DNA of 64,000 bases from Candidatus Woesebacteria bacterium GW2011_GWB1_38_8b. Lineage in GTDB: Bacteria > Patescibacteriota > Microgenomatia > UBA8517. Positions 8,143 through 40,289 of the stretch are shown piece after piece. The notes below the pieces were generated by a model. The model was not told the DNA's origin. It saw nothing but the letters and a program-made list of their open reading frames with translations, and searched no databases. Both the position numbers and the translations under genes were made by a program. The stretch spans positions 19,924-83,923 of the forward strand of contig LBVN01000001.1 of the NCBI GenBank assembly GCA_000993115.1, written 5' to 3'. Position 1 is the first letter of the stretch; each line of letters begins with the position of its first letter.

Positions 8143-9066
8143 TTACAAAGCAAGAAGTATTGCTATAAAGATCAAGAACCCTGCACCTATTGTAAAAATA
8201 ATAGTAGGGAAAGCAATTCCTGCATCAGCTAAAGTTCCACCGGTTGCTCCCGTTGAACCCGCACTTGCAATAGTTGTTGATGTTGGAGTTGGTGTATTTG
8301 TAGATGCCGTACCACCGGAACCGCTTGCGGTTGTTGGTGTTGGCGTATTAGTCGGTGTATTTGTTGGGGTGTTAGTCGGTAACCCACCCGACCCGCTTGC
8401 TGTTGTTGCAGTAGGTGTAGGTGTATTGGTGGGAGTTAGTGTTGCTGTCGCCTGTTGTTGGGTAGGAACAGGAGTGCCTGTAGCTGTTTCAGTTGGAATT
8501 GGAGTTGCAGTCGCGTTTGCTACCGGTAAAATCGTAAGATTTAACGGGACCGTATTTGCCAACACGTTTAGTCCAACGTCACCTGTGCTAACCGCCGCTA
8601 CCTTTGAACTTGGTTCGACTGCTATTGTCGCTACTCCTTCAGTAAGTGCAGTGAACGAAATTGTTCCGATACTACCTACTCCTGTTTGTGCTTGCCCGCC
8701 TGTCGGAAGATAAATAATGTAAGTTACCGTTCCTGCGGCGTTATCATAAGTTGAAGTTAGAACTTGAGCACCTGGAGGGAATGAACCAAGCGACAAATTA
8801 TTAATTTGTATAACATCTTTACTAAATGTTAGATACATTTCAGCACCAACTATTTCGTTCGATCCCGTATTTAAATCAATCGAAACATTAAATTGTTCCC
8901 CAACTCTAGGAGCCTGATTATCTGGTGTAAAATAAACCGTTGTTTCAGGTGCGGCTTTTTGTTCAAATACAGCCCTTCTCCCAACCAAAGTCACTCCGAG
9001 AAACACTCCCAAGCCCATAATTACGACTATAAAAATTGGGATAAATATTTTTGCTAATTTTTTCAT
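8143..9066 (-). CDS. Membrane-anchored cohesin-domain protein: N-terminal signal/anchor, cohesin-like beta-sandwich, Thr/Pro linker, C-terminal TM helix
   Basis: Cohesin-like pattern (VYFTPDNQAPRVGEQFNVSIDL...AEMYLTFSKDVIQI...GTISFTAL...). TP-rich linker with TNTPTNTPTNTPTPTTASGSGG repeats. C-terminus FPTIIFTIGAGFLIFIAILLAL. Confidence 0.6.
   Translation of the reverse strand: MKKLAKIFIPIFIVVIMGLGVFLGVTLVGRRAVFEQKAAPETTVYFTPDNQAPRVGEQFNVSIDLNTGSNEIVGAEMYLTFSKDVIQINNLSLGSFPPGAQVLTSTYDNAAGTVTYIIYLPTGGQAQTGVGSIGTISFTALTEGVATIAVEPSSKVAAVSTGDVGLNVLANTVPLNLTILPVANATATPIPTETATGTPVPTQQQATATLTPTNTPTPTATTASGSGGLPTNTPTNTPTNTPTPTTASGSGGTASTNTPTPTSTTIASAGSTGATGGTLADAGIAFPTIIFTIGAGFLIFIAILLAL
8270..8480. 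repeat. Low-complexity tandem repeat DNA encoding a Thr/Pro/Asn linker
   Basis: Periodic ggtgt(t/a)gg(t/a)gt units. The antisense ORF 8369..8713 is an artefact of this repeat. Confidence 0.7.
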
Positions 9067-9071
9067 TGTAA

Positions 9072-9626
9072 TTACTTTAACGTAATATTTAAGGGTTCTG
9101 CAACAATCGTTTTTACGCTATTTTGCCCGGCGGACTTTGATAACTGAGTAAGGTTCACCTCAGTCGTCTCAACCGACTTATCTAAAATCTGGAATTTAAC
9201 CGTGGCCATTACGTCTCCATCTGCCCGCGCCGATTGAAGTTGTCTTCCAACAGAATATATTAGTATCCCCGGCTTTGTAGTGTCCTTCTGGAGCACCACA
9301 CTTTTTTCCCAAATGTTCCCCTCGGTTACATCAACTATCCTTAAAATGGCTGGGTCATAAGTTAGTTCAAGCGTATATCCTGCAGATTCAAAACTTTCAG
9401 AATCCTGTATTTTAAGTGAAACTTCCAGTTGATCTGAAATAGGGGTTTCCGCAGAAAACTCGACGAACATTTGTTCAGGCACAGCAGTCGGTGTTTGCGA
9501 TACAGATGTTACCGGTGGTATAACAACCGGTTCATTTTTGCCTTTATTCATTCTATAAAATACAACTATTCCGATTACAAAAACATAAACTACGGCTAAA
9601 ACTATCCAAATATTTAATTTTTTCAT
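9072..9626 (-). CDS. Cohesin-domain protein with an N-terminal TM anchor
   Basis: MKKLNIWIVLAVVYVFVIGIVVF anchor, then a cohesin-like segment ...VSLKIQDSESFESAGYTLELTYDPAILRIVDVTEGNI...DVMATVKFQIL... Confidence 0.6.
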   Translation of the reverse strand: MKKLNIWIVLAVVYVFVIGIVVFYRMNKGKNEPVVIPPVTSVSQTPTAVPEQMFVEFSAETPISDQLEVSLKIQDSESFESAGYTLELTYDPAILRIVDVTEGNIWEKSVVLQKDTTKPGILIYSVGRQLQSARADGDVMATVKFQILDKSVETTEVNLTQLSKSAGQNSVKTIVAEPLNITLK

Positions 9627-9673: not shown

Positions 9674-9724
9674 AGTTCAACTCCGGTGCCCAAAGTTGGA
9701 GTTCAACTCCGGTGCCCAAAGTTG
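9674..9724. repeat. Tandem direct duplication (two 25-nt copies, 26-nt period) of the 3' terminal codons of gene 9703..10698, extending into its 3' flank
   Basis: agttcaactccggtgcccaaagttg occurs twice (about 9674..9698 and 9700..9724). Copy B encodes the last codons (FGHRS, stop at 9703..9705). Confidence 0.7.
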
Positions 9725-10698
9725 TAGAAAAGAACACTGTAATCCAGTATATCAACAGCCCCGGCGCTATCATGGTTTAGATTGGCTCTCGGATCGTAAC
9801 CCACCTGACCGGGTAATTTTCCAAAACTGGCAAATAAAATACTGTAATCAAGGATATCTACATTTCCGTCGCAGTTTGCATCTCCCGACCAACAATTAGG
9901 TGTTGGTGTTAAAGTATTTGTAATAGTGACAGGGGGGACAGTCCCTGTTGGCGTCATTGTGGGAGTGGGAGTGGGAGTTGGTGTTCGAGTCGGTGTAGGT
10001 GTGAATGTCGCTGTAGGTGTCGGTGTACGAGTCGGTGATGGTGTTGCCGTTGGCGTGGCTGTCGGAGTGTTTGTTACAACAGGATTAAGCGTAAAAGTCG
10101 AACCGGTTGAAGCAATAATCTGAGCCTCAGCTGTCATATTTACTATCTGAGAATCACTAACAGTAAAAGCAAGTTGAGAACTCACATTTGTTTGAGTAGT
10201 TGAGGATCGCACAGAAAAATTTGCAATCTCGAAAGTTCCTGTCGGGGGATTTGCCCTATCAAGCTCATCCAAACCAAGTGCAATTACAACTCTTCCTGTT
10301 GAATTCGCTTCCGCCATTGTCGTTTTAACGATCCAGGGGTCAGTTGCAGGCTCACGATTCTGTCTTAACCTCGTAGTTGTAGTTACTTCACTTGCCAAAT
10401 TAATTTGTGCAGGATTAAATGTCAATACAACTCTTGTAAAACCAATTAGCTGAGTTCCTGCACTTAAATTAACCCGAACCGTTGCATTCGGAGGTAGAGT
10501 CGCACTTGCCGGGGTTGTACTTAAAGTAACTGTCGTCACCGCTGCTTTGGGAACATATTGAACCGCTTTCCTTACAATAAATATAGCGGCGGGAAGTCCG
10601 ATTAATATTACAAGAAGGAGTGCCAATCTGGCCATAGTACCTTTCGGTAAATAGGACGATATTTTATGGGTAAATTTCATACCTAACTTAAAAAACAA
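9703..10698 (-). CDS. Adaptor scaffoldin-like protein: N-terminal anchor, cohesin-like domain(s), TP linker, and a C-terminal divergent Cys-flanked dockerin
   Basis: Cohesin-like VTLSTTPASATLPPNATVRVNLSA...VLTFNPAQINLAS...GRVVIALGL. Linker TPTATPTATPSPTRTPTPTA... Dockerin CWSGDANCDGNVDILDYSILFASFGK...NHDSAGAVDILDYSVLFYNFG. Confidence 0.6.
   Translation of the reverse strand: MFFKLGMKFTHKISSYLPKGTMARLALLLVILIGLPAAIFIVRKAVQYVPKAAVTTVTLSTTPASATLPPNATVRVNLSAGTQLIGFTRVVLTFNPAQINLASEVTTTTRLRQNREPATDPWIVKTTMAEANSTGRVVIALGLDELDRANPPTGTFEIANFSVRSSTTQTNVSSQLAFTVSDSQIVNMTAEAQIIASTGSTFTLNPVVTNTPTATPTATPSPTRTPTPTATFTPTPTRTPTPTPTPTMTPTGTVPPVTITNTLTPTPNCWSGDANCDGNVDILDYSILFASFGKLPGQVGYDPRANLNHDSAGAVDILDYSVLFYNFGHRS
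9935..10085. repeat. Low-complexity tandem repeat DNA encoding a Thr/Pro linker
   Basis: gtgggagtgggagttggtgttcgagtcggtgtaggtgt... The antisense ORF 9926..10123 (VGVGVGV) is an artefact. Confidence 0.7.
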
Positions 10699-10746: not shown

Positions 10747-12102
10747 TCAGTGATAATTTGACATCCAAATTACATAATCGGCTCCATCAACTCGTCCCGA
10801 ACTATTAAAGTCTCCAACAACGCGTCCTTGTGATGTTGTTTGGTTAAAATGATTAAGCCAGATAATATAGTCGACACCATCAACTCTCCCGTCACCATTT
10901 GCATCCCCCTGAACCAAAACTGTAGTTGGAGTTGGTGTTGGCGTACGAGTCGCTGTTGGAGTGGGTGTATTTGTTACGGCAGGTGTAGGGGTTGGAGTCG
11001 ATTGAGTTGAACCAGGCACCCAACCAGCAAGTTGGGCCATTAAAACCCAATAAGCTTTTGCTATTCTTACGTTTGCAGCACCCATACTGAAGTGGCCATT
11101 TTCGGTTTCTACTGTGTAATGTTGACAAATTGCCGGCTGGTTAATTCTATCATCAGGCCAATTTTCACAAACTGAGGTATTTTGACAATATAACACCCCG
11201 TCCCGGTTATCGTAACATTCCCTACCATCGGGCAGTGTGGCTTCGACATCCGCAAAATCAAGAAGTATTCTATAACGACCATTAGAATCCCGTCCGGAAT
11301 TGATAAATTGACGCATTTGATTATTAAAATTTGTTGAAACTTGTGTACCAATACTTCTTGCTAGACTCGTTGTCTGAAAGACAAAATATTTATTGCTATG
11401 TGCGACCAAACGTCTATCAAGATCGTAGACATCAGCTTTGTCACTGGAGTTATTATAAAAAAAACCACAACGTGGTTGATTACTCCCCCCGCAACTTGTT
11501 AAATTAGCTATAGAATCTCCATCCATCACATTCAAGTAGCTAAACTGGTAAGTATAAACATCAAAATCGTTTAAACTTCTCCCACCCTGAACCTGATTAT
11601 TATCAAGAAAAGTTATGTAATCGTTTGTCATTGTATACCACGTTGAAGCAAACCCTTCATGAATCCAGTTTGCACGATTGTAGCCACCAGTCCTACTCCA
11701 ATAAATATACTCAGGACTAAGATTATAACTTGGGTCGTTATGTACTAATTTTGTACACGTAAAGCTTGCTTGCGAACTTGATGGTGCTTCAAAGCAAGTT
11801 AACGCATCATTAGTAGTTACCCCTACGGAACGATTTCCAAATATTAACCTAATCTTTTCAGCCCTACAGAAATAACTTATTACACCAGTACTATCGTCTA
11901 TACAGTCACCATTTGAATCAGTAGTTGTAAAATCGGGGATTTGTTCGAAAAGAGCAATAGAATTTCTGTTAACAATTATTGGGGACTGCTGCAAGCGAAC
12001 GGATAAATTGGGATCTACCTGCGCATACACATTGCTCCTGCCAATCGAAAGTAATAAAAATGAAAAACAGACGGCAATAACCCTCTTGATAACTTTATAC
12101 AT
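10747..12102 (-). CDS. Secreted dockerin-bearing protein, unknown Cys-rich catalytic domain (family A, paralogue of 14580..15908)
   Basis: Signal peptide ending VYAQV. Conserved block CYDNRDGVLYC...PDD..NQPAICQHYTVE.ENGH..MGAANVRIAKAYWVLMAQLAGWVPG. C-terminal dockerin QGDANGDGRVDGVDYIIWLNHFNQ...GDFNSSGRVDGADYVIWMSNY. Confidence 0.6.
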   Translation of the reverse strand: MYKVIKRVIAVCFSFLLLSIGRSNVYAQVDPNLSVRLQQSPIIVNRNSIALFEQIPDFTTTDSNGDCIDDSTGVISYFCRAEKIRLIFGNRSVGVTTNDALTCFEAPSSSQASFTCTKLVHNDPSYNLSPEYIYWSRTGGYNRANWIHEGFASTWYTMTNDYITFLDNNQVQGGRSLNDFDVYTYQFSYLNVMDGDSIANLTSCGGSNQPRCGFFYNNSSDKADVYDLDRRLVAHSNKYFVFQTTSLARSIGTQVSTNFNNQMRQFINSGRDSNGRYRILLDFADVEATLPDGRECYDNRDGVLYCQNTSVCENWPDDRINQPAICQHYTVETENGHFSMGAANVRIAKAYWVLMAQLAGWVPGSTQSTPTPTPAVTNTPTPTATRTPTPTPTTVLVQGDANGDGRVDGVDYIIWLNHFNQTTSQGRVVGDFNSSGRVDGADYVIWMSNYH

Positions 12103-12164
12103 CTATAGATTTTCAATCATCCGGCAGTAATTTGCAACTACTTCGACCGGACAGTATCTCTTAA

Positions 12165-14513
12165 TCAAATACCATAATTATTTAACCAAATTATATAGTC
12201 TGCCCCGTCAACTTTTCCGGAATTATTAAAATCTCCGTTACTATAACCACTGGCATTTTGATCGTAATGATTTAGCCAGATAACATAATCCGCTCCATCT
12301 ACTTTTCCGTCACTATTTGCATCCCCCGGAATGACGGTCGGTGTTGGAGTGAGGGTTGTCTCTGTTGGTGTGGTGTTTAATAAAATTATTGCATCATTTG
12401 GTTGAAGAGTAACTTGATTCACAACACCTCCATCGTTATACCTTGCAATGCTTACAACTTTGAAAGCATCTCCTATGACCACGCCTGTACCCAAAGGCTT
12501 GATAACAACAGTCGACGTCTGATTAAAGTTAAATTTTCCCAAACTGTGCCAGCCAAGAGAACCCAAGGACTGATCAAGGTTGACATCAACTCCATTAATA
12601 CTAACAGTGACATTCTTGCTATAGGTAGTTAATGGTGCCACCCATGCCAAAACATCGTACTCTCCCGCATACGGAATTGTAAAATTGTACGTAAGGCTTG
12701 CATTTGCATTTGGAGCGTTTATTGAATGAATCTTTAATCCCCATTGGTCAAAACTTGCGGCAAGTATAGACCATGAACCGACAGCTATTGCCTGATCGTC
12801 ATCAATTCTTTGAAAATAAAGTGGGGCTTGAGAACCGTTAAGTTTCCGATAAGTTTTATCAAGTGTCACGGTTTGCTGCAGAGGCCCCTCGTTTAGAAGT
12901 ATTGTCCCGTTTTTAAAATGTCTTTGCCATACTCCTCCGACACCCTCCTGAAAGACAATATCGTCAAAGTAAATATCACCGGCAGCTATTCCTAAATCAA
13001 AAAGTAACGTACCATTTGTCCCTGTCCCTATAGCCTTCATTACGTAATAGTACTGCGTCCAATCAGTAAAAAAACGTATGTTATATGCAGCTTGCGCTAA
13101 ATATTCCCATGCACCTCCTGCTCTTTGGATTCTTACCCCGTTATAACGCGAGGTGTTGGCTTTAGCTTTAAAACTTAACGTATAATACTTTCCCGCCTCA
13201 ACTGAAACATAATTTTCTCTGAAAGTCACCCACCCACTTGATGCTCCTCCTATTTGAATGTGAGCAGAGCCGTTTTCTATATTATAGGTTGCTACAACAG
13301 TACTCCCGCTCGTACTTACAAACCAGGGACTAGTACCTGAAGAAAAGTTCCCGTTTACCACCTGATCGGGAGCAGTAATTTGGGAAATTAGCATCGGTGA
13401 GTCGATAGACTGTCCCAAGTATCCCAGCGACGAAACCTGACCTCGGGTACCGTATTCGTCATACCACCAGTTGGATCCCCACATATAGGGACCAAGATCA
13501 TAATGATACATTCCTCCCGCCATCATGGTTGAAACCAACCCAAAGCGCATCCGGTTATAATCAGTGCCATATTCAACCATCATTTCAGGTTTTATTGCCG
13601 TCCAGATATTTTGGAAATTATATTTGCTTCTCATTGTGACGCTGTCGGGAGTGTTTAACACACTAGTAGTGTTGGGAGAAATTGTGTTTTTTGATGTCCA
13701 TACGGAGAAATTATGGATTATTTCGGACCAAGGTCTACCGTAATCATTATCCAAATATCTTTTTATATCCATTTCAAATAATCGACCATTAATCCACTGG
13801 CTGAAATAAGGTGGAGAACCATTACAAAAAATAATCATGCCTGGGAAAGCAGCTCGGAGTCTTTGAAAAATATCAATTACACCTGAGGCATGATCGGCGT
13901 TTACAGTTGCTATATCATCGGGCACGCCATCAACATTCGCGTCAATATCATTGCCTAGTGTAATTGAAACTCCCGAATCATCAACCAAGTCAACTGTTAT
14001 GCCATCAAAATGACCGCCACTTAAATTCCAACGATTTATAAGATAATTTACTATAGTATCTCTACAATAAGTGTTACCCAAATTGGCATAGGCAGCATTA
14101 TATGTGACATCGCGTAAAATTGTCCCTACGGAATTTCGCAATATGCAAGCATAGTCTGGCGAACCAGGAGAAGCATTCCACCACTGAGGTTGGTTATCTA
14201 GACCTCTTCCCGGATCACTGGCAGTAATAATTGTAGCCGTAACTAAAACTTTCGTATTTGGATTTAGCGCATGAACAGCATCAGCCCGATCCTTAGATGA
14301 TTGGCTTGTGCCTGCCGAAGCCATTGACCAAAGATTAAAACCTGCAAAATAATCAGCATTGGTATTCGTATTGTATCCGCCCCACCAATTTAATATACGT
14401 GGATAACCTGAATCAGCATAAACATTTTTAGCAAAGCCTAATAAGGCAACCAAACTGCAAACAAATACAAAGCACATCTTGGTTAGACTTGTTATCACAA
14501 CCTCATTATACAA
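12165..14513 (-). CDS. Secreted glycoside-hydrolase-like TIM-barrel protein with a CBM4/9-like module and a C-terminal dockerin (family B, paralogue of 34445..36694)
   Basis: Signal peptide. N-terminal GHL/GH114-like region (HFDGITVDLV...). Middle module QVVNGNFSSGTSPWF...GWVTFRENYV..GKYYTLSFKAKA, typical of the CBM4/9/22 fold. Dockerin IPGDANSDGKVDGADYVIWLNHYDQN...NGDFNNSGKVDGADYIIWLNNY. Confidence 0.55.
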   Translation of the reverse strand: MYNEVVITSLTKMCFVFVCSLVALLGFAKNVYADSGYPRILNWWGGYNTNTNADYFAGFNLWSMASAGTSQSSKDRADAVHALNPNTKVLVTATIITASDPGRGLDNQPQWWNASPGSPDYACILRNSVGTILRDVTYNAAYANLGNTYCRDTIVNYLINRWNLSGGHFDGITVDLVDDSGVSITLGNDIDANVDGVPDDIATVNADHASGVIDIFQRLRAAFPGMIIFCNGSPPYFSQWINGRLFEMDIKRYLDNDYGRPWSEIIHNFSVWTSKNTISPNTTSVLNTPDSVTMRSKYNFQNIWTAIKPEMMVEYGTDYNRMRFGLVSTMMAGGMYHYDLGPYMWGSNWWYDEYGTRGQVSSLGYLGQSIDSPMLISQITAPDQVVNGNFSSGTSPWFVSTSGSTVVATYNIENGSAHIQIGGASSGWVTFRENYVSVEAGKYYTLSFKAKANTSRYNGVRIQRAGGAWEYLAQAAYNIRFFTDWTQYYYVMKAIGTGTNGTLLFDLGIAAGDIYFDDIVFQEGVGGVWQRHFKNGTILLNEGPLQQTVTLDKTYRKLNGSQAPLYFQRIDDDQAIAVGSWSILAASFDQWGLKIHSINAPNANASLTYNFTIPYAGEYDVLAWVAPLTTYSKNVTVSINGVDVNLDQSLGSLGWHSLGKFNFNQTSTVVIKPLGTGVVIGDAFKVVSIARYNDGGVVNQVTLQPNDAIILLNTTPTETTLTPTPTVIPGDANSDGKVDGADYVIWLNHYDQNASGYSNGDFNNSGKVDGADYIIWLNNYGI

Positions 14514-14579
14514 TTCTTTTAAATGTCCAAATATGAAGTATATTATCGGTTTAAAACTTTGGTAGCGGTACTAATGAAG

Positions 14580-15908
14580 CTATGAACTATAATTGTTAAC
14601 CCAAATAACATAATCCAAGCCATTAACCACACCATCAGAATTAAAATCTCCGTCCAACCTGCCCCAGGAGGTGTTTTGGTTAAAGTGAGAAAGCCAAATT
14701 ACGTAATCAACTCCATCCACCCGACCGTCACTATTTGCGTCAGCCTGATTGTATGACGGAATCGGAGTGAATGTTGGAGTTGGAGTTCTTGTTGACGTTA
14801 CCGTCTGAGTTGGTGTCGCGGTTATTTGTTGCTGTCCTGGGACCCAACCCGCAATCTGAGCAAGTAAAATCCAGTATGCTTTCGCCGATCTTATTAAACC
14901 GCCGCCCAATGTAAGGTGTCCGTTGTCTTGTTCAACAGTATAATTTTGGCAAATAGCCGGGTAATTTTGCCCATCATCAGGATAATTTTCTTGAAAGGTA
15001 GTCATGGGTGTGCAAGCCACACCTTCTTGTTTACGAACATAAGCCACCCCATCTCGGTTATCATAACAACTCACACCGCCTGGTGTATGAGAAATTATAT
15101 CTGCAAAATCAAACAGTATTTTATGATTAGAACTGGCAAAGCTTCGCATCTGATTATTAAACACCTCTCCATCTTCAGCACCGATACTTCTCGCATAACT
15201 TGTAGTCCAATAAATAAAAGCTTTATTTATGTACTGACTTTCAAGCTCAGTAATTCGGCCAATATGCCAGGGTTCATAGCTGTCATGACAGCCTGCCCTG
15301 TTTTGGGTCACCATAAAACCACATAGCGGATTGGCAATATTTGGTTGTTCATTGGTATTTCCTCCAATGTTAAGGTAGCTAAATTGATAGGTAACAATGT
15401 CATAACTGGCGATATTTTGGGGAAATAATGTACTTATAAAATTATCAGTTAAACTGTACCAGGACCCCTCCCGAAAAAGATATACAATATTACTGCGGTT
15501 ATATTTCGCAGGGTCCGGTGTAAATCTAATATCCTGCGGCACCACTCCATTATTCAAGTCTATCTGGTTATACATTCTACTGCACCATTGATTTGTATCA
15601 AAATAAGTTTTACGGCAGGAATTTGGTGACATTGCCCAACTTGTTGCTGTTAAACAGTCAAGTGACTCATTTATATTTTGACCAACGGAGCGGTCAGAGA
15701 AAAACACTCTGATATTTCTGGCGCGCTGCAAATAGTTTTCAGGGATTTGGTCAAATAAACCCAGTGAATTGTGATCGACTACGATTGGATTTGTCTGAAG
15801 GCGAGTTCTCAAGTTCGGGTCAACTTGAGCCTTCGTAATACTTGCAGATAATGAGAAAAAACACACCGCTAAAATTGATAAAAACAATAACTTGAACTCT
15901 TTTTTCAT
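14580..15908 (-). CDS. Secreted dockerin-bearing protein, unknown Cys-rich domain (family A paralogue)
   Basis: Shares blocks with 10747..12102 (AQVDPNL..RLQ, CYDNRDGVAY, YPDDGQNYPAICQNYTVEQDNGH, RSAKAYWILLAQIAGWVPG). Dockerin at the C-terminus. Confidence 0.6.
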   Translation of the reverse strand: MKKEFKLLFLSILAVCFFSLSASITKAQVDPNLRTRLQTNPIVVDHNSLGLFDQIPENYLQRARNIRVFFSDRSVGQNINESLDCLTATSWAMSPNSCRKTYFDTNQWCSRMYNQIDLNNGVVPQDIRFTPDPAKYNRSNIVYLFREGSWYSLTDNFISTLFPQNIASYDIVTYQFSYLNIGGNTNEQPNIANPLCGFMVTQNRAGCHDSYEPWHIGRITELESQYINKAFIYWTTSYARSIGAEDGEVFNNQMRSFASSNHKILFDFADIISHTPGGVSCYDNRDGVAYVRKQEGVACTPMTTFQENYPDDGQNYPAICQNYTVEQDNGHLTLGGGLIRSAKAYWILLAQIAGWVPGQQQITATPTQTVTSTRTPTPTFTPIPSYNQADANSDGRVDGVDYVIWLSHFNQNTSWGRLDGDFNSDGVVNGLDYVIWVNNYSS

Positions 15909-15930
15909 CTAATGGTTTTGAATAGGTTAA

Positions 15931-18924: not shown

Positions 18925-18935
18925 TAATAATTATA

Positions 18936-21926: not shown

Positions 21927-21964
21927 TTATATCAAAATATGTGAGCTAAAGAAAGTAAAGATTA

Positions 21965-25012: not shown

Positions 25013-25062
25013 AATCTCACTTTACAATAATATGAAGCTGAATGAAATACCAAAAACTGCAC

Positions 25063-27666: not shown

Positions 27667-27747
27667 ATTACTATTTTACAATGTTATATGAAAAATAAAT
27701 AACTCTGTTTCCAACTAAGAGGTCAAAGGATTCACTGAATTCTTTAC

Positions 27748-31516: not shown

Positions 31517-32765
31517 TATAATTGGTTAGCCAGATTACATAGTCAGCTCCGTCAACTACACCATCAGAATTAAAGTTACCATTTGACGGACCTGGGATGC
31601 TTTGATTATAGTGAATAAGCCAAATTACATAATCGGTCCCATCAACTCTCCCATCACCATTTGCGTCACCTGGTTTTAATATTGCGGGCGAAACGCAATT
31701 AGGTGAAAGCGTACCGATACAATCATCAGTAATTTTCTTAAGCATTGCCCAGCGGTCTTTTCCCTCCGGATCAAATTGTCCATTATGCAGCGTTTTGGTA
31801 TAACCACTGTATGACCTGTCCCAATCGTACCAAATCATCATATCAACAACACCGGACCTGGCAACCCGACAGGCTTCTTCGTACATCTGATCAGCTGTTG
31901 GTACATGAGCATTATTGTAACCGACATTCTCAAAAGCTTGCAGAAGAACCCCGTAGTTGGCATTTTCACCGACAACAGCTCTATCCCTTTTCATCTTTTC
32001 CAGGCCATAACCGCAAGTTCCTTCAGGGCCATAGCATTTATTACTGCAAGAACTAGCCCACTGATTAAGGCAGCACGAAGGGTTGGATGAGTTTGCTATT
32101 TCACAGGTTAATGACTGGCAGGTGTTACCTCCGCTACCTTGATAAAAAGGTATACAGTGGGTCCAGGAAATCGGCCAATCAATAGCATCCGCCCCTATCG
32201 CCTGCCATTGCGCTTTGCTGCTAATTCCTGTATCAACAACGTTATCAATCCAATTGGCTATCGGCAAATTATATTCACTTTTGATTTTATTAGTAAGAGC
32301 AACCTGCTGAGCCAGTGTAATTCCATCGTTACGGGGTTCCTGAAAGGTGTTAATCCCTATAAGAAGATCTCTGCCACGTCCGGTTTGATACCACTCCCTT
32401 ATACGGTTTAGAATGGGTTTTTCTGCCTCATCTATTACCCATACGCCGTTAACCAAATTCCAGGGTATGCAGTCAGACCCGCAAAAATGAGGGCCGTTTG
32501 GCCATATAATCAGATACATATTGGTCTCTTCAGCTTTTTGGATATAAGAATTGAGTTTATTTAGATCTCCTTCATTAACGATTGCCTGAACAAGGTTAAT
32601 TCCATAGTTTCTGAGAACAGTAAAATCGTTGACATTACTAACATTATCGACTCCATGATAACAAACCTTACGAGTTGGTGTTTGAGCCAATAGGTTATCA
32701 GTAGCGACAAGTGCTATTACGAATATTACCAAGACAACGGATAAGATATACCTTAGCTTATACAT
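31509..32765 (-). CDS. Secreted putative glycoside-hydrolase-like protein with a Cys-rich insert and a dockerin
   Basis: Signal peptide LLAQTP. Alpha/beta-barrel-like alternation. Dockerin KPGDANGDGRVDGTDYVIWLIHYNQS...NGNFNSDGVVDGADYVIWLTNY. Confidence 0.4.
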   Translation of the reverse strand: MYKLRYILSVVLVIFVIALVATDNLLAQTPTRKVCYHGVDNVSNVNDFTVLRNYGINLVQAIVNEGDLNKLNSYIQKAEETNMYLIIWPNGPHFCGSDCIPWNLVNGVWVIDEAEKPILNRIREWYQTGRGRDLLIGINTFQEPRNDGITLAQQVALTNKIKSEYNLPIANWIDNVVDTGISSKAQWQAIGADAIDWPISWTHCIPFYQGSGGNTCQSLTCEIANSSNPSCCLNQWASSCSNKCYGPEGTCGYGLEKMKRDRAVVGENANYGVLLQAFENVGYNNAHVPTADQMYEEACRVARSGVVDMMIWYDWDRSYSGYTKTLHNGQFDPEGKDRWAMLKKITDDCIGTLSPNCVSPAILKPGDANGDGRVDGTDYVIWLIHYNQSIPGPSNGNFNSDGVVDGADYVIWLTNYNV

Positions 32766-34515
32766 TATAGCTTACTAGCCAGATAACATAGTCTACTCCG
32801 TTTACCGTTCCGTCTTCATTAAAATCACCATCTCTAACTCCATTTCCAGAATTTTGATTGTAATGATTAAGCCAAATTAAATAATCCACCCCGTCAACTT
32901 TTCCATCACCATTTGCATCCCCTGGAATCGTAGTCGGGGTTGGGGTTTGTTCAAAAACAAATTCATAAGCTCCGATATCAAAAGCCGACCCTTGAGGCCG
33001 TATGGTTCCAATATAATCATCCGTAATACCTATTGCCGATAAATCTGCTCCGGAATTGACAGCGAGTGAGCTTGTTTGCAGGGAATAATCATTTATTGCC
33101 GGGTTTGTAAATTTTACTTGGGAAATATTTAGTGTTGTTAAGTTATTTGAAACGAAAAACTCACTACTTTCGGCACTGGGAATATTAAAATACCCGGAGG
33201 ACCCATAGCCAGGATTAATAATAATATTATTCTTTATCACATTTGCGTTTATACCGTTGTTGATTGCAAAAGTGATGCCATATCCAGCCGGATTAACTAT
33301 AGTATTATTAACAACAATTGTGTTGCCGTTATGTTGGTAACCTGTTGGCTTTACATATACATATATTCCGTCATGCCAATAAGAACTGGCGGTATTATTG
33401 GCAATGACGTTATTATAAATTCTGCCCCCGTCACCTCCATAAGTAATTCCATGACCCTTGGTATTGGTAATTAAATTGTTGTAAATATCACAAACACTAC
33501 CCGGGTTGATATTAATACCGTGAACATCTGTGGCTATGTCTTGCCCACCCTTATTTATCGAGTTGTTGTAAATATTGCAATCTTTTACGGCTGATCCAAC
33601 TTGTAGTGTTTTGTCGCCAAGTGTATCAATAACATTGTTGTAAATATGGACACCTTCGATTACGGGATTGACTACAACAACACCTGTTGTTACTGATCCA
33701 TCAGGGTTGTTACAACTTCTGGTATAGGGAATAGTAGAATAATTTGAATTCCCAATATAATATGCCAGTTGTAAGCTTGAGGTGTTGTCGGCTTTTGTAA
33801 ATCCATGAAAGTAATTATCATGAAAAAACAAATTATGTTGTGTAAAATTATCACGACTAACTACATCCAACTCATTATATAAACCATCTCCATTGTAATC
33901 CCAATCGTCATTATTAAGGCGGATTGCCTCATTCGCTCTTGAAATCGCCGGACATGAAGCGTTTGTGATTGCGTGAACAGCAATGGTAGACCCGAGAAGT
34001 TCCGTAAATTCCAAATGGTCAATCTCAAAGTATTCGGATTTCAGTCCCAACAACAAACCAAAAGTCAGGGCTTTTTGAACAAAAATACCGTATTTAAAAC
34101 CCGGACTTCCAGTTCCAGTTATTCGGAAATGTTTGGCATTGGCAATGAAAAATCCATATCCTGAAGAAGTATTGAATATTACTTGTCCTCCAGAATTAAT
34201 AAAGGTTATTGGATTTGTTACTGTACCACTAATATTTTTAATAGTTAAAGTACCTCTAGTTCCTGAAGAAATACAGACAGTATCACCTGGCTGAACTTGA
34301 TTGTATGGTGAAGACCTACCATCAAATACGGAAGTGGACACATTGACAGTAAAATCACAGTTTGGAGTTTGCGCCCATAAACCATCTACAGCAATCAACG
34401 AAATTGCATATAATATTAATGCGCTAAACACCGCATATCCTAATTTATACATTGTAGTTCGAAAGCCAGATAACATAGTCAGCTCCATCAACTTTTCCAT
34501 CAGAATTTGCATCAC
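32758..34515 (-). CDS. Secreted right-handed parallel beta-helix repeat protein with a dockerin; the likely true start is the Met at about 34452 (MYKLGYAVF...)
   Basis: PbH1-like repeats (YNNVIDT, YNNSINK, YNNLITN, YNNVIANN, NNTIVN, KNNIIIN). Dockerin IPGDANGDGKVDGVDYLIWLNHYNQN...DGDFNEDGTVNGVDYVIWLVSY. Confidence 0.5.
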   Translation of the reverse strand: MMQILMEKLMELTMLSGFRTTMYKLGYAVFSALILYAISLIAVDGLWAQTPNCDFTVNVSTSVFDGRSSPYNQVQPGDTVCISSGTRGTLTIKNISGTVTNPITFINSGGQVIFNTSSGYGFFIANAKHFRITGTGSPGFKYGIFVQKALTFGLLLGLKSEYFEIDHLEFTELLGSTIAVHAITNASCPAISRANEAIRLNNDDWDYNGDGLYNELDVVSRDNFTQHNLFFHDNYFHGFTKADNTSSLQLAYYIGNSNYSTIPYTRSCNNPDGSVTTGVVVVNPVIEGVHIYNNVIDTLGDKTLQVGSAVKDCNIYNNSINKGGQDIATDVHGININPGSVCDIYNNLITNTKGHGITYGGDGGRIYNNVIANNTASSYWHDGIYVYVKPTGYQHNGNTIVVNNTIVNPAGYGITFAINNGINANVIKNNIIINPGYGSSGYFNIPSAESSEFFVSNNLTTLNISQVKFTNPAINDYSLQTSSLAVNSGADLSAIGITDDYIGTIRPQGSAFDIGAYEFVFEQTPTPTTIPGDANGDGKVDGVDYLIWLNHYNQNSGNGVRDGDFNEDGTVNGVDYVIWLVSYNV

Positions 34516-36694
34516 CCGAAATAAGCGTAGGGGTTGGTGAACTCCCTGAAGAATTAAGCAGTACTATCGCGTCATTGGGTTGAAGAGTAATTGAGTTAAC
34601 AGTACTGCCATCGTTATACCTTGCAGTACTTACAACCTTAATTGCATCGCCTATAACAACACCTGAACCCAAGGGTTTAACAACAACAGTTGCAGATTGG
34701 TTAAAATTATATTTTCCCAAACTATGCCAACCCAAAGCACCAACCGATTGGTCTAAGTTCACGTCTGCCCCATTTATATTGACCGTAACATTTTTACTAT
34801 AACTCGCAGACGGTGCTACCCAAGCCAAGACTTCATATTCACCAGCATACGGTATTGTAAAATTATAAGTCAGAGTTGCGCTGGTATTTGGAGCTGTAAT
34901 AGAGTGAACTTTTAAACCCCATTGATCAAAGCTTGCACTAGGATTAGTCCAAGAGCCAACAACCGTAGCCTGGTCATCATCAATTCTCTGAAAATAAAGC
35001 GGTGCCTGTGTGCCGTTAAGTTTTTGGTAAGTTTTGTCCAGTGTTACTGTTTGCTGCAATGGTCCTTCGTTTAATAAAACAGTTCCGTTATCAAAATGCC
35101 GCTGCCATACCCCTCCAACACCTTCTTGAAAGGCTATATCGTCAAAATAAATATCTCCTGCGTCAATGCCCAAATCAAATAGTAGCGTACCATTAGTGCC
35201 TGTACCTGTAGCTTTAAGTACATAATAATATTGATTCCATTCAGGGAAAAGACGTATATTATATGCCGCTTGTGCCAATGTTTCCCAAGCACCTCCGGCT
35301 CTTTGAACTCTTACCCCGCCATTACGGGAGGTGCTAGCTTTTGCACGGAAACTAACCGTATAATATTTTCCCGTCTCAACCGAAACATAATTTTCCCTAA
35401 AAACTGCCCAGCCGCTTGCCGCACCTCCAAGATGTATATGGGCTGAACCGTTTTCAACATTATAAGTTGCTATGACACTGCTTCCGCTTGTACTTGCAAA
35501 CCAGGGGCTGGTTCCTGAGGAAAAATTTCCGTTTACCACTTGATCGGGAGAGGTAATTTGACTGACAAGCGTATGTGTATCGGTAGGTTGTCCAAGATAT
35601 CCAAGTGTTGAAATCTGACCTCGAGTGCCGTATTCGTCATACCACCAGTTAGAATTGCCATACATATAGCTCCCTAAGTCATATGAATACATAACTCCAG
35701 CCATCATCGAAGAAACCAAACCGAAACGCATACGATCATAATCAGCGCCGTATTCGGCCATCATTTCCGGTTTTATCGCAGTCCAAATATTCTGGAAGTT
35801 ATATTTTGTCTTTATCAAAATACCGTTGGGAGAGTTCATCAAACCTGTTGTGTTTGGGTTGATTGCAGTATTCTGAGCCCATACAGAAAAGCCATTAATA
35901 ATTTCCGGCCAAGGTCTGCCGAAATCATTATCCAAATACCTTTTCATATCCATTTCGTATAAACGCCCGTTTACCCATTGACCATAATAAGGCGGAGAAT
36001 CGTTTGCATGAATAATGATATTAGGAAATGCGGCTCTTAATCTTTGAAAAATATCAATCATGCCGGCAACATAATCTGCATCGACCGAAGTAAGATTGTC
36101 CGGTATTCCATCAACGTTGGTATCTATATTATTACCTAAAACCCAACTAACACCCCCGTCTCCGGCTTGATCTACCTGCCAGCCATCAAAATGACCGCCG
36201 CTGGCATTCCACTTTCCAATAAAATAATTTACTAAAACACCACGGCAATAACTATTTCCTAAATTATTGTAAGCGGCGTTGTAACTAACATCCCGCAATA
36301 CTGCCCCTGAGGAGTTCCGCAAAATACATGCATAGTCAGGAGTACCGGGAGTGGCGCTCCACCATTGTGGTTGAACATCCAAACCACTCCCCGGGTCATG
36401 TGCCGGAATAATATCTGCAGTTACAAGTATTTTCGTATTAGGATTCAGAACATGTATCGCATCCGCACGACTTTTACTGGTGGAGTTGGATCCATCGCTG
36501 TACATTGCGTAGAGATTGAAACTTGCAAAGTACCCGTTGTCTACATTAGCTGTATAATTCCCCCACAAATTATATATTCGCGGATATCCACTGCTGTCTG
36601 CAAAGGTGTTTTTAGGATTTAATAAAAAAAATGCAAAAAACAAAAGCACCGTTGACAAGCGACAACTAACAATCAGTAATTTCTTACACCCCAT
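34445..36694 (-). CDS. Secreted glycoside-hydrolase-like TIM-barrel + CBM4/9-like + dockerin protein (family B paralogue of 12165..14513)
   Basis: Collinear and highly similar to 12165..14513 (SGYPRI..N.WG.Y, DAGDIYFDDI.FQEGVGGVWQRHF). Dockerin ISGDANSDGKVDGADYVIWLSNY. Confidence 0.55.
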   Translation of the reverse strand: MGCKKLLIVSCRLSTVLLFFAFFLLNPKNTFADSSGYPRIYNLWGNYTANVDNGYFASFNLYAMYSDGSNSTSKSRADAIHVLNPNTKILVTADIIPAHDPGSGLDVQPQWWSATPGTPDYACILRNSSGAVLRDVSYNAAYNNLGNSYCRGVLVNYFIGKWNASGGHFDGWQVDQAGDGGVSWVLGNNIDTNVDGIPDNLTSVDADYVAGMIDIFQRLRAAFPNIIIHANDSPPYYGQWVNGRLYEMDMKRYLDNDFGRPWPEIINGFSVWAQNTAINPNTTGLMNSPNGILIKTKYNFQNIWTAIKPEMMAEYGADYDRMRFGLVSSMMAGVMYSYDLGSYMYGNSNWWYDEYGTRGQISTLGYLGQPTDTHTLVSQITSPDQVVNGNFSSGTSPWFASTSGSSVIATYNVENGSAHIHLGGAASGWAVFRENYVSVETGKYYTVSFRAKASTSRNGGVRVQRAGGAWETLAQAAYNIRLFPEWNQYYYVLKATGTGTNGTLLFDLGIDAGDIYFDDIAFQEGVGGVWQRHFDNGTVLLNEGPLQQTVTLDKTYQKLNGTQAPLYFQRIDDDQATVVGSWTNPSASFDQWGLKVHSITAPNTSATLTYNFTIPYAGEYEVLAWVAPSASYSKNVTVNINGADVNLDQSVGALGWHSLGKYNFNQSATVVVKPLGSGVVIGDAIKVVSTARYNDGSTVNSITLQPNDAIVLLNSSGSSPTPTLISGDANSDGKVDGADYVIWLSNYNV

Positions 36695-39362
36695 AATTAT
36701 TCAACCAAATCACATAGTCAGCCCCATCAACATTTCCTGAATTATTAAAGTCACCATTTGCAGGACCGGTGACATTTAGATTGTAGTGATTTAGCCAAAT
36801 TACATAATCAGCTCCATCAACTCGTCCGTCGTTATTCGCATCTCCTAGGATTGGCGTTGGTGAGATTGTAGGAGTAATACTTATCGATTGATTATAATTC
36901 CCGATTTTTACTCCAACATCTGTTGTTACCGAAGCCAAATTATTTAGATTTATTATCAGTTCACCTTGATTGTTCGTTGGAATTTGTGAACTTGTTTTAG
37001 CTAAATTCGCACCATTGTCGAATTGCCAATATTCTACTGGCAGGGTTTCGTTTACAGAAAAACCTGAAATTGTAACACTCCCTGTTAATCTACCTAAATC
37101 CCAAGTCTGGGAACATCCGGATATTCCACCCACTACTGCGCACCATGTGTGTTTTTTATTTTGAATCCAAAGGTGCGCCAATTTCTTTTGTATATTTTTC
37201 TGACCAATAACCCGAATCGAATTATTATCATATCCCAAGGCTCCTATATCTGTATAACCTCCCTGATTTAAAGGAATATTTACTAAAAAGTCGGAAAGGG
37301 GTTTAAATCTATCCCGATGGTCAAACGTCAAAGGACAAGGAACAACTCCCCCGGGACAGTCATAAATATGAAAATTTTCAAACCAATAAGATTCAATTAA
37401 TCCGCCAGAATTAAGTCCCGCCCAAAGAAAATTATGAAGCCAAACCCCATTAGTATCCTTTCTTATATCTGAATCCTGAACCAGGTTGTTATCAACCACA
37501 AAACCGGTTTCCCCCCTTACTGTCGGCCAGCGTGTGTTTGATTGCGTACCCCACTGCGAACTGGCATCAATAGTAGCTTGTGCCTCGTCATAAAAATCAG
37601 TCAATGGCACACAAGGATTTCCGGATCTTCTTATGTAGCAGTGAACATCAGCAAAATCAATACCGGGATAATTATTTAAATTCCAAGAGGATGTAGTCCC
37701 TGTCCAAACTGAAGTTGACACCATTTGATGCGGGGAAAATTGACCCATATATTCCCCCATCATATTAACCGAAATTCTGTGGCCAGAATAACCCGGATCA
37801 CCCTCGTTCACATATTCCCAGGAATGTATATTTGTCGAATATCCCCAACGGGCCTCCAGATATCTCCACCAAGCTTTTTGTAACCACCTTGTTTTGGTAA
37901 TGGAGGTGTCTGAGGGTCCATAAAAATAATAAGATACGGGGTTAAAATCACCTGTTGGATTCCCGCTATGGTCAATGTGTGTAAATGTCCACTCTCTGTG
38001 GTCTCCAATTACGGGACGAAGGTAAACACTGTTCTGTTTAGCCAACTCAACAACCTGATCAAAAGAAAAAGAATTTCGCTGGTCAAAATATCTATGGTGA
38101 TCCATTTTAGGTTTTTGTAAAATATTTGCACCAACCGCAATATTGTTCTGTAATTCCTTTATTTCAACCTCGGAAACTCTGACACTTCCTGAAGTTATAT
38201 TCTCGAGTTGTAAAAAAAGATGGTCTATGAAATCCTGATTTCCGGTCGTAAAAGTTCCCGTCAACCATTGCCAGGAAGCGTTTGCTCCCTGCCTTACATA
38301 AGGTGTAATTGCAGTTGCCGAATTACATCCCTGCCAAGTACCCAGTTTGGCTACAAATCCCCCCTCCCCAACAATATTATCAGGATAATAAAAAATTCTA
38401 ATTTGGTAAGTAGTGTTTGGTTTTACAGCAATTGGAGCGTTTTGGTATGGGTCATGAAAAACACAAGGGTACACTGTTCCTACTTTTAACGCCAGTTCAT
38501 GATCGCTTTCCAAATACTGATTAACGTTCGAGGTTAGAAGTTCCATCGGAGGATCGCCCCCTGTATTTCCAAATGCTTTCCATGGATTCCAACCTGCACC
38601 AAATATTGACCACTGAGACAGCCAAACGCGAATCAGTTGAACACCATTTTGTCCCATACTTTGAAAATTGGATTGATTTTGTGAAATCGGATTTACCCAG
38701 TTTACGTGGTTATAGTTCATGTTATATCCAAGACCGGCAAAATATGACCCATTATCAAATTCAAAATAGCGCTTATCACTTTGGGCAACTCTAATAAATC
38801 CCTTACTGCCTGATGCGACAACACTAAAGCCACTGATGTTTGAAGTTGAACTGCCTGATGCGTCTCGCACTTTTATTCTGTATTGCCAGTTTCCGACTTG
38901 GTTTGGTGCGTAACGAACTTTCCAGGAAAAATTTCCGTTTGGATATATCCAGTCTCTAGTCCCGTTGTTTTTGCTTAACATTGAAAAATCCTGATAATAA
39001 AAAGCTGGTTGCGTATAAGCATTGTTCCAGTCTGTTTCGCCTGGAGGAAGAAGCTCCGCGTCTACTGAAATTCCTAAATCGGCTTCTTTAAGGCCTGATG
39101 GCACAGGAGGTTCATAAGGAAGCTGTAAATTTTGTGCAACAGTATTTGCAACCTGAAAAGAAATTTCCAGCTTTTCGTATTTTGGAATTTGAGAACCCTG
39201 ATACGATGACCTATTATCGGAAATACTATTTATCGTAGGTCCCTGCTGGGCAAAAATATTTCTTGGATACACCAAAAAAAATCCCAAACATAGAAATAGT
39301 GATGTTAGAATTAATAGTCTTCGCATACTACTTATCAGTATATCAGCCAACTGGACTCTCAA
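36684..39362 (-). CDS. Secreted DUF5060/GH5-like (cellulase-superfamily TIM barrel) protein with a dockerin
   Basis: N-terminal Ig-like region, then a TIM-barrel-like core (KRYFEFDNGSYFAGLGYNMNY...RVWLSQW). Dockerin LGDANNDGRVDGADYVIWLNHYNLN...NGDFNNSGNVDGADYVIWLNNY. Confidence 0.4.
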   Translation of the reverse strand: MRVQLADILISSMRRLLILTSLFLCLGFFLVYPRNIFAQQGPTINSISDNRSSYQGSQIPKYEKLEISFQVANTVAQNLQLPYEPPVPSGLKEADLGISVDAELLPPGETDWNNAYTQPAFYYQDFSMLSKNNGTRDWIYPNGNFSWKVRYAPNQVGNWQYRIKVRDASGSSTSNISGFSVVASGSKGFIRVAQSDKRYFEFDNGSYFAGLGYNMNYNHVNWVNPISQNQSNFQSMGQNGVQLIRVWLSQWSIFGAGWNPWKAFGNTGGDPPMELLTSNVNQYLESDHELALKVGTVYPCVFHDPYQNAPIAVKPNTTYQIRIFYYPDNIVGEGGFVAKLGTWQGCNSATAITPYVRQGANASWQWLTGTFTTGNQDFIDHLFLQLENITSGSVRVSEVEIKELQNNIAVGANILQKPKMDHHRYFDQRNSFSFDQVVELAKQNSVYLRPVIGDHREWTFTHIDHSGNPTGDFNPVSYYFYGPSDTSITKTRWLQKAWWRYLEARWGYSTNIHSWEYVNEGDPGYSGHRISVNMMGEYMGQFSPHQMVSTSVWTGTTSSWNLNNYPGIDFADVHCYIRRSGNPCVPLTDFYDEAQATIDASSQWGTQSNTRWPTVRGETGFVVDNNLVQDSDIRKDTNGVWLHNFLWAGLNSGGLIESYWFENFHIYDCPGGVVPCPLTFDHRDRFKPLSDFLVNIPLNQGGYTDIGALGYDNNSIRVIGQKNIQKKLAHLWIQNKKHTWCAVVGGISGCSQTWDLGRLTGSVTISGFSVNETLPVEYWQFDNGANLAKTSSQIPTNNQGELIINLNNLASVTTDVGVKIGNYNQSISITPTISPTPILGDANNDGRVDGADYVIWLNHYNLNVTGPANGDFNNSGNVDGADYVIWLNNYGV

Positions 39363-39383
39363 TCCAGAAAAAAATTTGTGAAT

Positions 39384-40289
39384 CTAATTAAATGCAGACT
39401 GAGTTTTTTCTTTTTTGGATAATCGGCCGAGGAGAAATGCAAAAACAGAGATCAAAAACATAACTACCGCGATCAAAATAAAGACAAAGTAATTGGTATG
39501 TTTTTGTAAGACCGGGATTTCAGTCGTCCCCTCTCCTAACACCTCCGGATTATTTTCGGAAATATTGCTTGGAAAAACAAATTTTTCTTCATTTGATTTG
39601 AGAGTTCTTTCTTCTTGATTCGATGCGAGGATCTTATCTACGGCTTTAGTTGGTTTGGGTTTTTCATTGTTTAAAATGGCATTGAGTGAACTTGCATTTG
39701 TAAGTGTCAAGCTATTTACGCTTTCCAAAACATCAATTCCGGCCTTATTTACAACATTTGTATCGTTTGTCATTCCGGCTTCATACGTAAAGGAAAAAAC
39801 TGATTTCGAATTTTCCGATTTGCTTTTAAAATATATTGTTGTAAGTCTGGCGGTGCTACCCGAAAAGTATTTTCCAAAGTCGTTGGAAAAAGCAACCTTT
39901 AATTTTCCTGAATTGTTATCAATAATTTCTTTAGCTTTGTATGTTAAGAGTCCGTAATCGGATATGTTTGTCAGTTCGATATTATTTGGATCGAAACTCA
40001 TTACCAGATCAACACCAACAATTTCTTCTTTCCCCGGGTTAAGATAGATATCGACTGAGCTGTTCGAGTCTTTTTTTAAAGAAATTGAATCGGGAGAAAA
40101 AGATAACGACGGAATGCTATCCGCTTTGACGGGTGAAACACATAACCAAAACAACAAAACCGCAATATTTATACTGAAAAATTTATTGAATTTACTTGCG
40201 AAATCTACGGACTTTAGTCTGTAGATGAAGCAAGAATCTAATCTTGTCGACAAAATACCATGGTCTTCAGCCTGTGGTAGTTTATTCAT
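39384..40289 (-). CDS. Membrane-anchored cohesin-domain protein (C-terminal TM helix plus basic tail); the start is uncertain
   Basis: Cohesin-like DSIPSLSFSPDSISLKKDSNSSVDIYLNPGKEEIVGVDLVMSFDPNNIELTNI...TTIYFKSK. C-terminus YFVFILIAVVMFLISVFAFLLGRLSKKEK. The annotated N-terminal 30 codons coincide with repeat-element copy 3. Confidence 0.55.
   Translation of the reverse strand: MNKLPQAEDHGILSTRLDSCFIYRLKSVDFASKFNKFFSINIAVLLFWLCVSPVKADSIPSLSFSPDSISLKKDSNSSVDIYLNPGKEEIVGVDLVMSFDPNNIELTNISDYGLLTYKAKEIIDNNSGKLKVAFSNDFGKYFSGSTARLTTIYFKSKSENSKSVFSFTYEAGMTNDTNVVNKAGIDVLESVNSLTLTNASSLNAILNNEKPKPTKAVDKILASNQEERTLKSNEEKFVFPSNISENNPEVLGEGTTEIPVLQKHTNYFVFILIAVVMFLISVFAFLLGRLSKKEKTQSAFN
40196..40262. 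repeat. Copy 3 (partial) of the intergenic repeat family: gcgaaatc + hairpin + atgaagc.agaatc + cgacaaaa
   Basis: gcgaaatctacggactttagtctgtagatgaagcaagaatctaatcttgtcgacaaaa aligns with copy 2 at 57903..57960. The hairpin sequence differs but the pairing is preserved. Confidence 0.55.

Follow-up and report, generated by a model that had tools for sequence, protein, structure and literature searches.

The C-terminal tail of a cohesin protein encoded in a 64,000-nucleotide stretch of the genome of Candidatus Woesebacteria bacterium GW2011_GWB1_38_8b (contig LBVN01000001.1, positions 19,924 to 83,923; hereafter the window) belongs to a conserved, position-fixed family of LPXTG-like C-terminal sorting signals. 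The protein, here called A, is encoded in a co-directional minus-strand block (41829 to 8143) of this Microgenomates member of the candidate phyla radiation (CPR). In the reading that we favour, at a probability of about 0.6, the block encodes a cellulosome-like surface display system composed of 13 dockerin proteins, two adaptors (proteins C and E) and three anchoring cohesins (A, B and D) with three modes of attachment, the tail of A being processed by a sortase. The dockerin enzymes would dock on the cohesins, and C and E, which carry different dockerins, would bridge to the anchors. What appears to be new here is the CPR sorting signal; anchoring of cohesins by a transmembrane (TM) helix is not new, and anchoring by sortase is classical. 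An earlier sequence-only reading of the window had described four cohesin open reading frames (ORFs) with hydrophobic terminal segments serving as TM anchors. All four (A to D) were recovered on the minus strand with the coordinates and ends reported for them, and their segments score 2.68-3.23 in hydropathy (Kyte-Doolittle, 19-residue window). The interpretation of the A C-terminus as a plain TM anchor is not supported, as this tail is a copy of the conserved signal.

The tail of protein A and its family

Protein A starts with a leader helix (residues 1-36) followed by a conserved QKAAPETT motif, and continues with the cohesin (42-180), a Thr/Pro-rich disordered linker (191-286) and the C-terminal sorting tail. 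Both ends are hydrophobic (2.86 over residues 1-34 and 2.87 over residues 281-307), and the AlphaFold model has helices at 3-36 and 286-306. The predicted local distance difference test score (pLDDT) is about 95 over residues 42-180, and the top 50 matches of the model in the PDB (Foldseek) are all cohesins. A 279-amino-acid variant of A found in a related locus (L012) is not a real allele; the difference arises from a run of X, an assembly gap, in the repetitive linker.

Homologues of A, with identities of 27-74%, have LPXTG-like heads at the same place (LPVAG-ISFPT, LPDSG-VSIPT, LPSAG-ISYPT, IPDSG-ISLPT, LPQAG, LPETG-ISIPT, IPVTG), after which the sequence is hydrophobic and ends in LLAL; in one homologue the head is LPNTA and the tail is basic. 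When a profile of the last 37 residues was compared with 1.84 billion representative proteins, 119 proteins were retrieved at E ≤ 1e-3. The match ended on the very last residue in 114 of them and within two residues of it in the other five. In the 117 tails that could be placed in register, the Gly of the head is invariant (100%), Pro precedes it at position -3 in 97%, and the dipeptide PT stands four residues after the Gly in 97%. The stretch behind PT is exactly 19 residues long in 116 of the 117 and free of charged residues in all. The consensus is thus [LI]P-x-[AST]-G-x3-PT, 19 uncharged residues and the end G[SA]LLLAL at the carboxyl terminus. Within the membrane part Gly recurs at +8, +10, +12 and +18, giving a G-x-G-x-G spacing, and the final residues are [S/A]-L-L-L-A-[L/I/F]. 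The residue before the invariant Gly (P1) is Ala or Ser more often than Thr. The tail of A, which ends in AILLAL, departs from this pattern only in the Pro, which is replaced by Ala; the resulting LADAG head is common to A and its 69%-identical orthologue (P0002).

The tail is carried by a variety of passengers, with Cohesin (12), DUF11 (7), fn3 (6) and Pur_ac_phosph_N (5) domains besides CARDB, VWA, Cyt-b5 and Big_2, and many tail-bearing proteins have no assigned domain. Weak matches to models of sortase substrates were obtained among 95 tail proteins: six to the RrgB isopeptide domain and two to TIGR01167 (E about 0.007). An NCBIfam scan of A and D (E ≤ 1) and of the 95 tail-bearing proteins gave no CTERM sorting-domain model among the families listed. 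Because the tail is portable, fixed in position and equipped with a conserved extracytoplasmic head, we regard it as a sorting signal and not a plain anchor.

Most of the tail-bearing proteins (P0070-P0182) also carry one of two conserved N-terminal leaders. The first class is rich in Lys and runs into LAGVAIFTA[IV]RLYQLRQ..VAPNVPSS.PKA. The second, present in A and C, consists of a hydrophobic helix followed by LV[RQ]Q.Q.I.EKAAPATT, which can also be written [RQ]-x-Q-x4-KAAP-x-TT. Neither class has a normal AXA site near the helix, which suggests that the N- and C-terminal elements form a paired signal. A prepilin-like reading of the leaders was dropped, as the sequences contain no G/FTLIE-type site.

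Wherever a genome record with the tail names a lineage, this is Woesebacteria, Microgenomates or Patescibacteria, apart from metagenome-assembled genomes (MAGs) with proteobacterial labels. These MAG records (L016, L019, L020, L023 and L026) are titled 'uncultured Gammaproteobacteria' or 'Alphaproteobacteria' and contain tail proteins in the Woesebacteria gene order; since they share the same 12-gene synteny, their labels are probably wrong. We found no paper on LPXTG signals in Patescibacteria and none on cohesin-dockerin systems in Woesebacteria, and the stereotyped Microgenomates tail with its companion leaders appears to be previously undescribed.

A tail-bearing protein is encoded in a conserved Microgenomates locus (L016-L027, L078 and L103, at about 4500-10500 of each), where it comes last in the series rpsT, a PilN-like protein with an INLLP motif, two small membrane proteins, an fn3-type protein, a Cys-rich variable protein and the tail-bearing protein itself; genes for a PMT-like glycosyltransferase, LCP, UvrD and FemAB lie downstream. 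The fn3-type neighbour, of about 450 residues, has the head LPDAGTSTPT (L103) or LPVTG..TPT followed by a TM segment and a Lys-rich tail (KKTKK), which is the classical layout.

Proposed sortase-type processing of the tail

After Sec export, the tail of A would hold the protein in the membrane, whereupon a sortase-type transpeptidase would cut within the LPxxG head and join the cohesin stalk to the cell wall. For the tail family as a whole we consider such processing moderately probable, and somewhat less so for A itself because of its LADAG head. Ala in place of Pro has a precedent, since class E sortases accept LAXTG (PMC5148588). The sortase family PF04203 has been reported from 1020 CPR versus 12 non-CPR genomes and described as 'near ubiquitous in Microgenomates' (Méheust et al., PMC6744442). 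A wall for attachment is indicated by the LCP wall-polymer ligase, BacA and PAP2 phosphatase encoded in the window, together with the FemAB and MurJ-like proteins encoded in related loci; the thin or atypical envelope that had earlier been put forward is therefore not required. The order of parts in A, a cohesin, a Thr/Pro stalk of about 100 residues and the tail, corresponds to the arrangement commonly used to present a domain on the tip of a stalk and suggests that the leader is removed.

Several results weigh against sortase-type processing. A Pfam scan of all larger ORFs of the window revealed no sortase, nor did the gene tables of the 10 kb on each side or the neighbourhoods of four relatives (P0004, P0019, P0011 and P0002). 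A search of 103 loci around tail genes, about 1.25 Mb in total, by phmmer with a Staphylococcus aureus SrtA query and by TLxTC-type regular expressions gave no candidate. The tail thus shows no gene linkage to a sortase. Of the two halves of the counter-case envisaged in the sequence-only reading, a conserved motif and a sortase or exosortase recognising it, the first is present in A as a slightly degenerate copy, and the enzyme was not located in any of these regions. Classical sortase signals are defined by a positively charged end, which the tail does not have. The membrane part of the tail is also much better conserved than in those signals, a pattern that may reflect recognition by a different enzyme or a lasting contact between helices. 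None of the curated Pfam or NCBIfam models covers the tail, and A gives no match to the LPXTG-anchor models (TIGR01167 / PF00746). In the LADAG head of A both the Pro and the Thr of LPXTG are missing, and cleavage of A may have ceased. Furthermore, its N-terminal helix has no obvious signal-peptidase site, so that mature A might stay membrane-bound at the N-terminus whatever happens at the C-terminus.

The main alternative assumes that all the hydrophobic ends, the C-terminus of A included, are permanent TM anchors and that nothing is cleaved, the Gly-rich tail helix packing in the membrane, for example with the leader helix. We hold this to be rather unlikely, although it accommodates many of the points just listed: the uncharged and highly conserved TM part with its G-x-G-x-G spacing, the co-occurrence of a conserved N-terminal helix with the tail, the loss of Pro and Thr from the head of A, and the lack of a sortase near any tail gene in the 1.25 Mb searched. 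C-terminal TM anchors have also been proposed for the CPR proteins PamC, PamD and PamR and for Firmicute cohesins. However, a pure anchor has no need of an invariant Gly and of nearly invariant Pro and PT at a fixed distance outside the membrane. In some members of the family the head has become LPETG, or LPNTA followed by a basic tail, and neighbouring proteins pair the same head with a classical basic-tailed TM segment. The passengers include DUF11 and isopeptide pilin-like domains, typical of sortase substrates, and sortase is near-ubiquitous in the clade.

An improbable alternative to sortase processing is that the tail and leaders are the substrate of a dedicated CPR-specific enzyme of another kind, comparable to the exosortase/PEP-CTERM, archaeosortase/PGF-CTERM and rhombosortase/GlyGly-CTERM systems. 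A signature of fixed length with a TM segment at the extreme C-terminus and a conserved membrane part is indeed what exosortase-type signals look like; the failure of curated models to match the tail and its restriction to Microgenomates and Patescibacteria point the same way. On the other hand, the head resembles LPXTG and not PEP, PGF or GG, the tail lacks the basic cluster that follows the TM segment in those systems, a sortase is already present in the clade, and no polytopic candidate recurs beside tail genes beyond ordinary synteny. The genes enriched around tail genes reflect nothing more than the orthologous synteny of the one conserved Microgenomates locus described above and include no recurrent candidate enzyme.

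In a broader reading, which is plausible though less likely than not, the LPxxG-x3-PT tail and the two leader types mark a hitherto undescribed, Microgenomates-specific sorting pathway, run either by a specialised sortase with unusual requirements or by a new enzyme, which would serve many surface proteins including those of the cellulosome-like complex.

Protein D as a predicted bitopic anchor

Protein D has a cleavable signal peptide (VKA|DS), a cohesin fold at residues 57-200, a disordered linker of about 65 residues (200-265) with the motif FVFP..NPEVLGE, a TM helix and the basic tail RLSKKEK; the hydrophobic segment 263-292 is followed by RLSKKEKTQSAFN. Pfam gives no match for D. Its assignment as a cohesin comes from comparison of its family profile with that of A (hhalign, 99% probability, E=4e-18), from a weak match of the D profile to the NagJ cohesin of Clostridium perfringens in the PDB (E=0.002), and from one member of the D family that carries PF00963. 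The AlphaFold model is consistent with this assignment: residues 57-200 form a beta-sandwich (pLDDT about 90), and the top 50 PDB matches are again all cohesins, among them 6kgf_C with E=1.2e-9 and a TM-score, normalised to target length, of 0.76.

The family comprises seven members (27-63% identity). In all of them a signal peptide and a cohesin are followed by a variable linker that contains FVFP...NP-VLGE, and then by a TM segment and a K/R-rich tail. Neither D nor the seven members contain an LPXTG, PEP or PGF motif. The earlier description of a TM segment with a basic tail and without such motifs was therefore borne out, as the type I bitopic layout recurs in the seven homologues. D is predicted to be a true type I bitopic membrane anchor; its architecture is directly visible, and the topology, which would place the basic tail in the cytoplasm, is deduced.

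The ATG of D and the stop codon of E overlap (ATGAATAA). Relative to the 268-residue members of its 90% cluster, D has 33 extra residues in the n-region of the signal peptide (window 40188..40289), flanked by AATAAA direct repeats.

Probable signal anchor of B and the predicted adaptors C and E

Protein B is composed of an N-terminal signal anchor (residues 1-28, with a 21-residue hydrophobic core), the sequence RMNKGKNE, a short Pro/Thr stalk and a C-terminal cohesin. The N-terminal segment has no AXA site, and B-like genes of the same architecture lie immediately upstream of A-like genes in L013, L030 and L032. Both observations agree with the earlier assignment of an N-terminal signal anchor, and B would be tethered by it in uncleaved form.

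For protein C only part of the same proposal stands. The N-terminal hydrophobic leader exists and is conserved; C ends in a dockerin, however, and for this reason is better read as a predicted monovalent adaptor. The ORF codes for 331 residues (gene callers choose a 325-residue start) and comprises a class II leader (hydrophobic at 19-49, score 2.68, then RKAVQYVPKAAVTT), a cohesin-like domain, a Thr/Pro linker and a divergent dockerin. Its match to the A family (hhalign, 98.3% probability, E=2.3e-14) includes the leader, and a PA14-cohesin-dockerin orthologue is encoded in L013. Protein E is a predicted bivalent adaptor, in which a cleavable signal peptide (TSA|QT) precedes two cohesin-like domains and a divergent dockerin; its residues 15-185 are homologous to the cohesin-like domain of C (E=2e-17).

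Composition of the gene cluster

The block encodes five cohesin proteins (A to E) with six cohesin domains, and 15 dockerin proteins, C and E being counted in both groups (Table 1). A, B and E score above the gathering threshold of Pfam PF00963 (24.1 bits). C and D lie below Pfam detection for cohesin, yet both match the A-family profile. A C-terminal hydrophobic stretch occurs together with an extracytoplasmic domain in only two of the real genes of the window, those of A and D. The hydrophobic segments of the cohesin proteins are kept in homologues and are therefore not due to chance. None of the 18 cluster proteins matched an SLH domain in Pfam at E ≤ 0.01, in keeping with the earlier view that SLH anchoring is not used.

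The C-terminal dockerins of the 13 secreted proteins fall into one near-identical class of 12 and a single fused repeat. Those of C and E are two divergent sequences distinct from the enzyme class, which gives three dockerin sequence classes in the block. The N-terminal segments of the dockerin enzymes are shorter and less hydrophobic (1.7-2.6) and lead into AXA-like sites, for example VYA|Q or SLA|Q. The modules assigned to the 13 proteins by Pfam include PQQ-type beta-propellers, CBM_4_9/Golvesin_C, GHL10, beta-helix and DUF5060. Other CPR loci likewise combine the cohesin trio with dockerin enzymes, among them GH39, pectate-lyase-like and phosphoesterase dockerin proteins.

It is very improbable that these cohesin-like proteins have nothing to do with polysaccharide degradation or enzyme display and that their hydrophobic ends are incidental features of miscellaneous surface proteins: non-cellulosomal cohesins are common, the Archaeoglobus fulgidus and C. 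perfringens structures being among the fold matches, and glycoside hydrolase domains can be recognised in few of the dockerin proteins, but five cohesin and 15 dockerin proteins stand in one co-directional block, the trio with its dockerin enzymes recurs, and the anchors are kept in homologues.

Table 1 Features of the window and of related loci, with the evidence for each
Feature	Coordinates	Strand	Evidence
Protein A, 307 amino acids	8143..9066	minus	PF00963 28.3 bits; AlphaFold; hydropathy
Sorting-signal copy in A, residues 279-307	8146..8232	minus	LADAG-IAF-PT and 19 uncharged residues (IIFTIGAGFLIFIAILLAL)
Class II leaders of A and C	8947..9066; 10550..10635		Conserved motif
Protein B, 184 amino acids	9072..9626	minus	PF00963 38.7 bits; hydropathy 2.88
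Protein C (putative adaptor)	9703..10698	minus	hhalign against A family; dockerin comparison
Secreted dockerin proteins, n=13	10747..39362	minus	Pfam; dockerin comparison; AXA-type signal-peptide sites seen in translations
Protein D, 301 amino acids	39384..40289	minus	Homologues; hhalign; AlphaFold and Foldseek; PDB profile
C-terminal TM helix of D, residues 263-292	39414..39503	minus	Hydropathy 3.23; AlphaFold helix 267-299, pLDDT 78-86
Protein E, 515 amino acids (putative adaptor)	40282..41829	minus	PF00963 27.0 bits at 263-351; Dockerin_1 28 bits
Recombinase and defence genes	window 1860..3434; L007 12930..21230; L010 13852..20714

Comparison with known systems

The closest parallel to A in the order of parts is ScaE of Ruminococcus flavefaciens and R. 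champanellensis, in which one N-terminal cohesin and a linker precede an LPXTG-type signal for attachment to peptidoglycan (PMC11557425); relatives of A have LPETG or LPxxG in this place. A differs in its LADAG head, in the lack of a basic tail, in the fixed 19-residue Gly-rich hydrophobic end and in its CPR, not Firmicute, host, and its processing is putative. The classical LPXTG signal (TIGR01167 / PF00746) likewise consists of a pentapeptide and a C-terminal hydrophobic stretch on secreted proteins, and it shares DUF11, isopeptide pilin-like and fn3 passengers with the CPR tail. The latter, in contrast, mostly has Ala or Ser at P1, PT four residues later, a fixed length and a conserved hydrophobic part, and no Lys/Arg tail. 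The LAXTG signal of actinobacterial class E sortases (SrtE1 and SrtE2 of Streptomyces coelicolor), found on chaplins, undergoes processing even though P3 is Ala and not Pro (PMC5148588); A and P0002 have L-A-D-A-G. LAXTG keeps Thr at P1 and a charged tail, whereas A has Ala at P1 and an uncharged tail, and 97% of the A tail family retain Pro.

For D, the counterpart is the group of 'nonSLH-anchoring' scaffoldins of H. luporum, C. cibarium and Lachnoclostridium sp. MSJ-17, and of R. difficilis and rumen Ruminococcus, which have a single cohesin and a predicted C-terminal TM segment, are proposed to sit in the bilayer and are identical to D in layout. They are Firmicute proteins and are themselves only predicted, while D represents a separate CPR family with the FVFP...VLGE linker motif. 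For Firmicutes, a category has already been named for scaffoldins that combine cohesins with a C-terminal TM helix (PMC11557425), and such proteins have also been described in Ruminococcus; the premise of the sequence-only reading, that known cellulosome anchoring uses SLH modules or sortase alone, is accordingly outdated. Yet another means of wall attachment, the fourth for a cohesin, is seen in the LysM-cohesin proteins of Anaerolineales (Chloroflexi; P0016-P0026, one of them named Anaerolineales; PF01476), distant homologues of the A cohesin that attach by another module: the LysM domain binds peptidoglycan non-covalently, and there is no C-terminal hydrophobic signal. The CPR Pam pilus chaperones and terminator (PamC, PamD and PamR) are unrelated in fold and function and have no cohesin or dockerin.

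Little is understood of the envelopes of CPR bacteria, which are uncultivated. With a rigid C-terminal signal common to the clade, Microgenomates surface proteins can be listed by computation, and the tail-bearing proteins provide a concrete set of substrates with which the role of the near-ubiquitous CPR sortase can be tested. If the tentatively proposed Microgenomates-specific pathway is real, many of the proteins of these organisms would depend on it for their surface display, the cellulosome-like complex included. The cluster extends cohesin-dockerin display beyond Firmicutes, with three anchoring modes and two adaptor tiers in a bacterium whose relatives have genomes of about 1 Mb, and it bears on how such small cells attach to polymers or hosts. 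It also teaches caution: a terminal hydrophobic stretch should not be called a membrane anchor before the residues upstream of it have been compared across homologues.

Neighbouring genes and minor observations

Exactly the same proteins are encoded on NCBI contig LBTR01000001 (GCA_000992155.1, US62_C0001 tags; Candidatus Woesebacteria) and on several metagenome contigs from the Rifle aquifer, up to 150 kb in length. The G+C content of the window is 34-45%. The block is flanked on one side by the gene of an MsbA-like ABC transporter (41896..43731) and on the other by a methyltransferase gene, with secA further out. Genes of large serine recombinases and of restriction-modification and defence systems (GmrSD, MmeI-like, OLD-like ATPase, ParB-methylase and EcoRI methylase) are located at or just beyond both ends of the window.

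Within the block, three tandem paralogues of about 1000 residues (15931..25012) each consist of a signal peptide, a PQQ/BamB-like beta-propeller, a long region without assignment and a dockerin. A CBM_4_9/Golvesin_C protein of 749 residues (34445..36694) ends in the single dockerin repeat (34445..34520, GDANSDGKVDGADYVIWLSNYNV); this repeat looks like a fusion of two, because the 782-residue paralogue of the protein (12165..14513) has two dockerin repeats. In the ORF 32758..34515, the first 23 residues or so are an out-of-frame read of the neighbouring dockerin, and the true start is probably MYKLGYAVF. The seryl-tRNA synthetase ORF (46469..47425) codes for only 318 residues and gives a weak partial match (26 bits) to the class II core that does not reach the cutoff; truncation or divergence may account for this.

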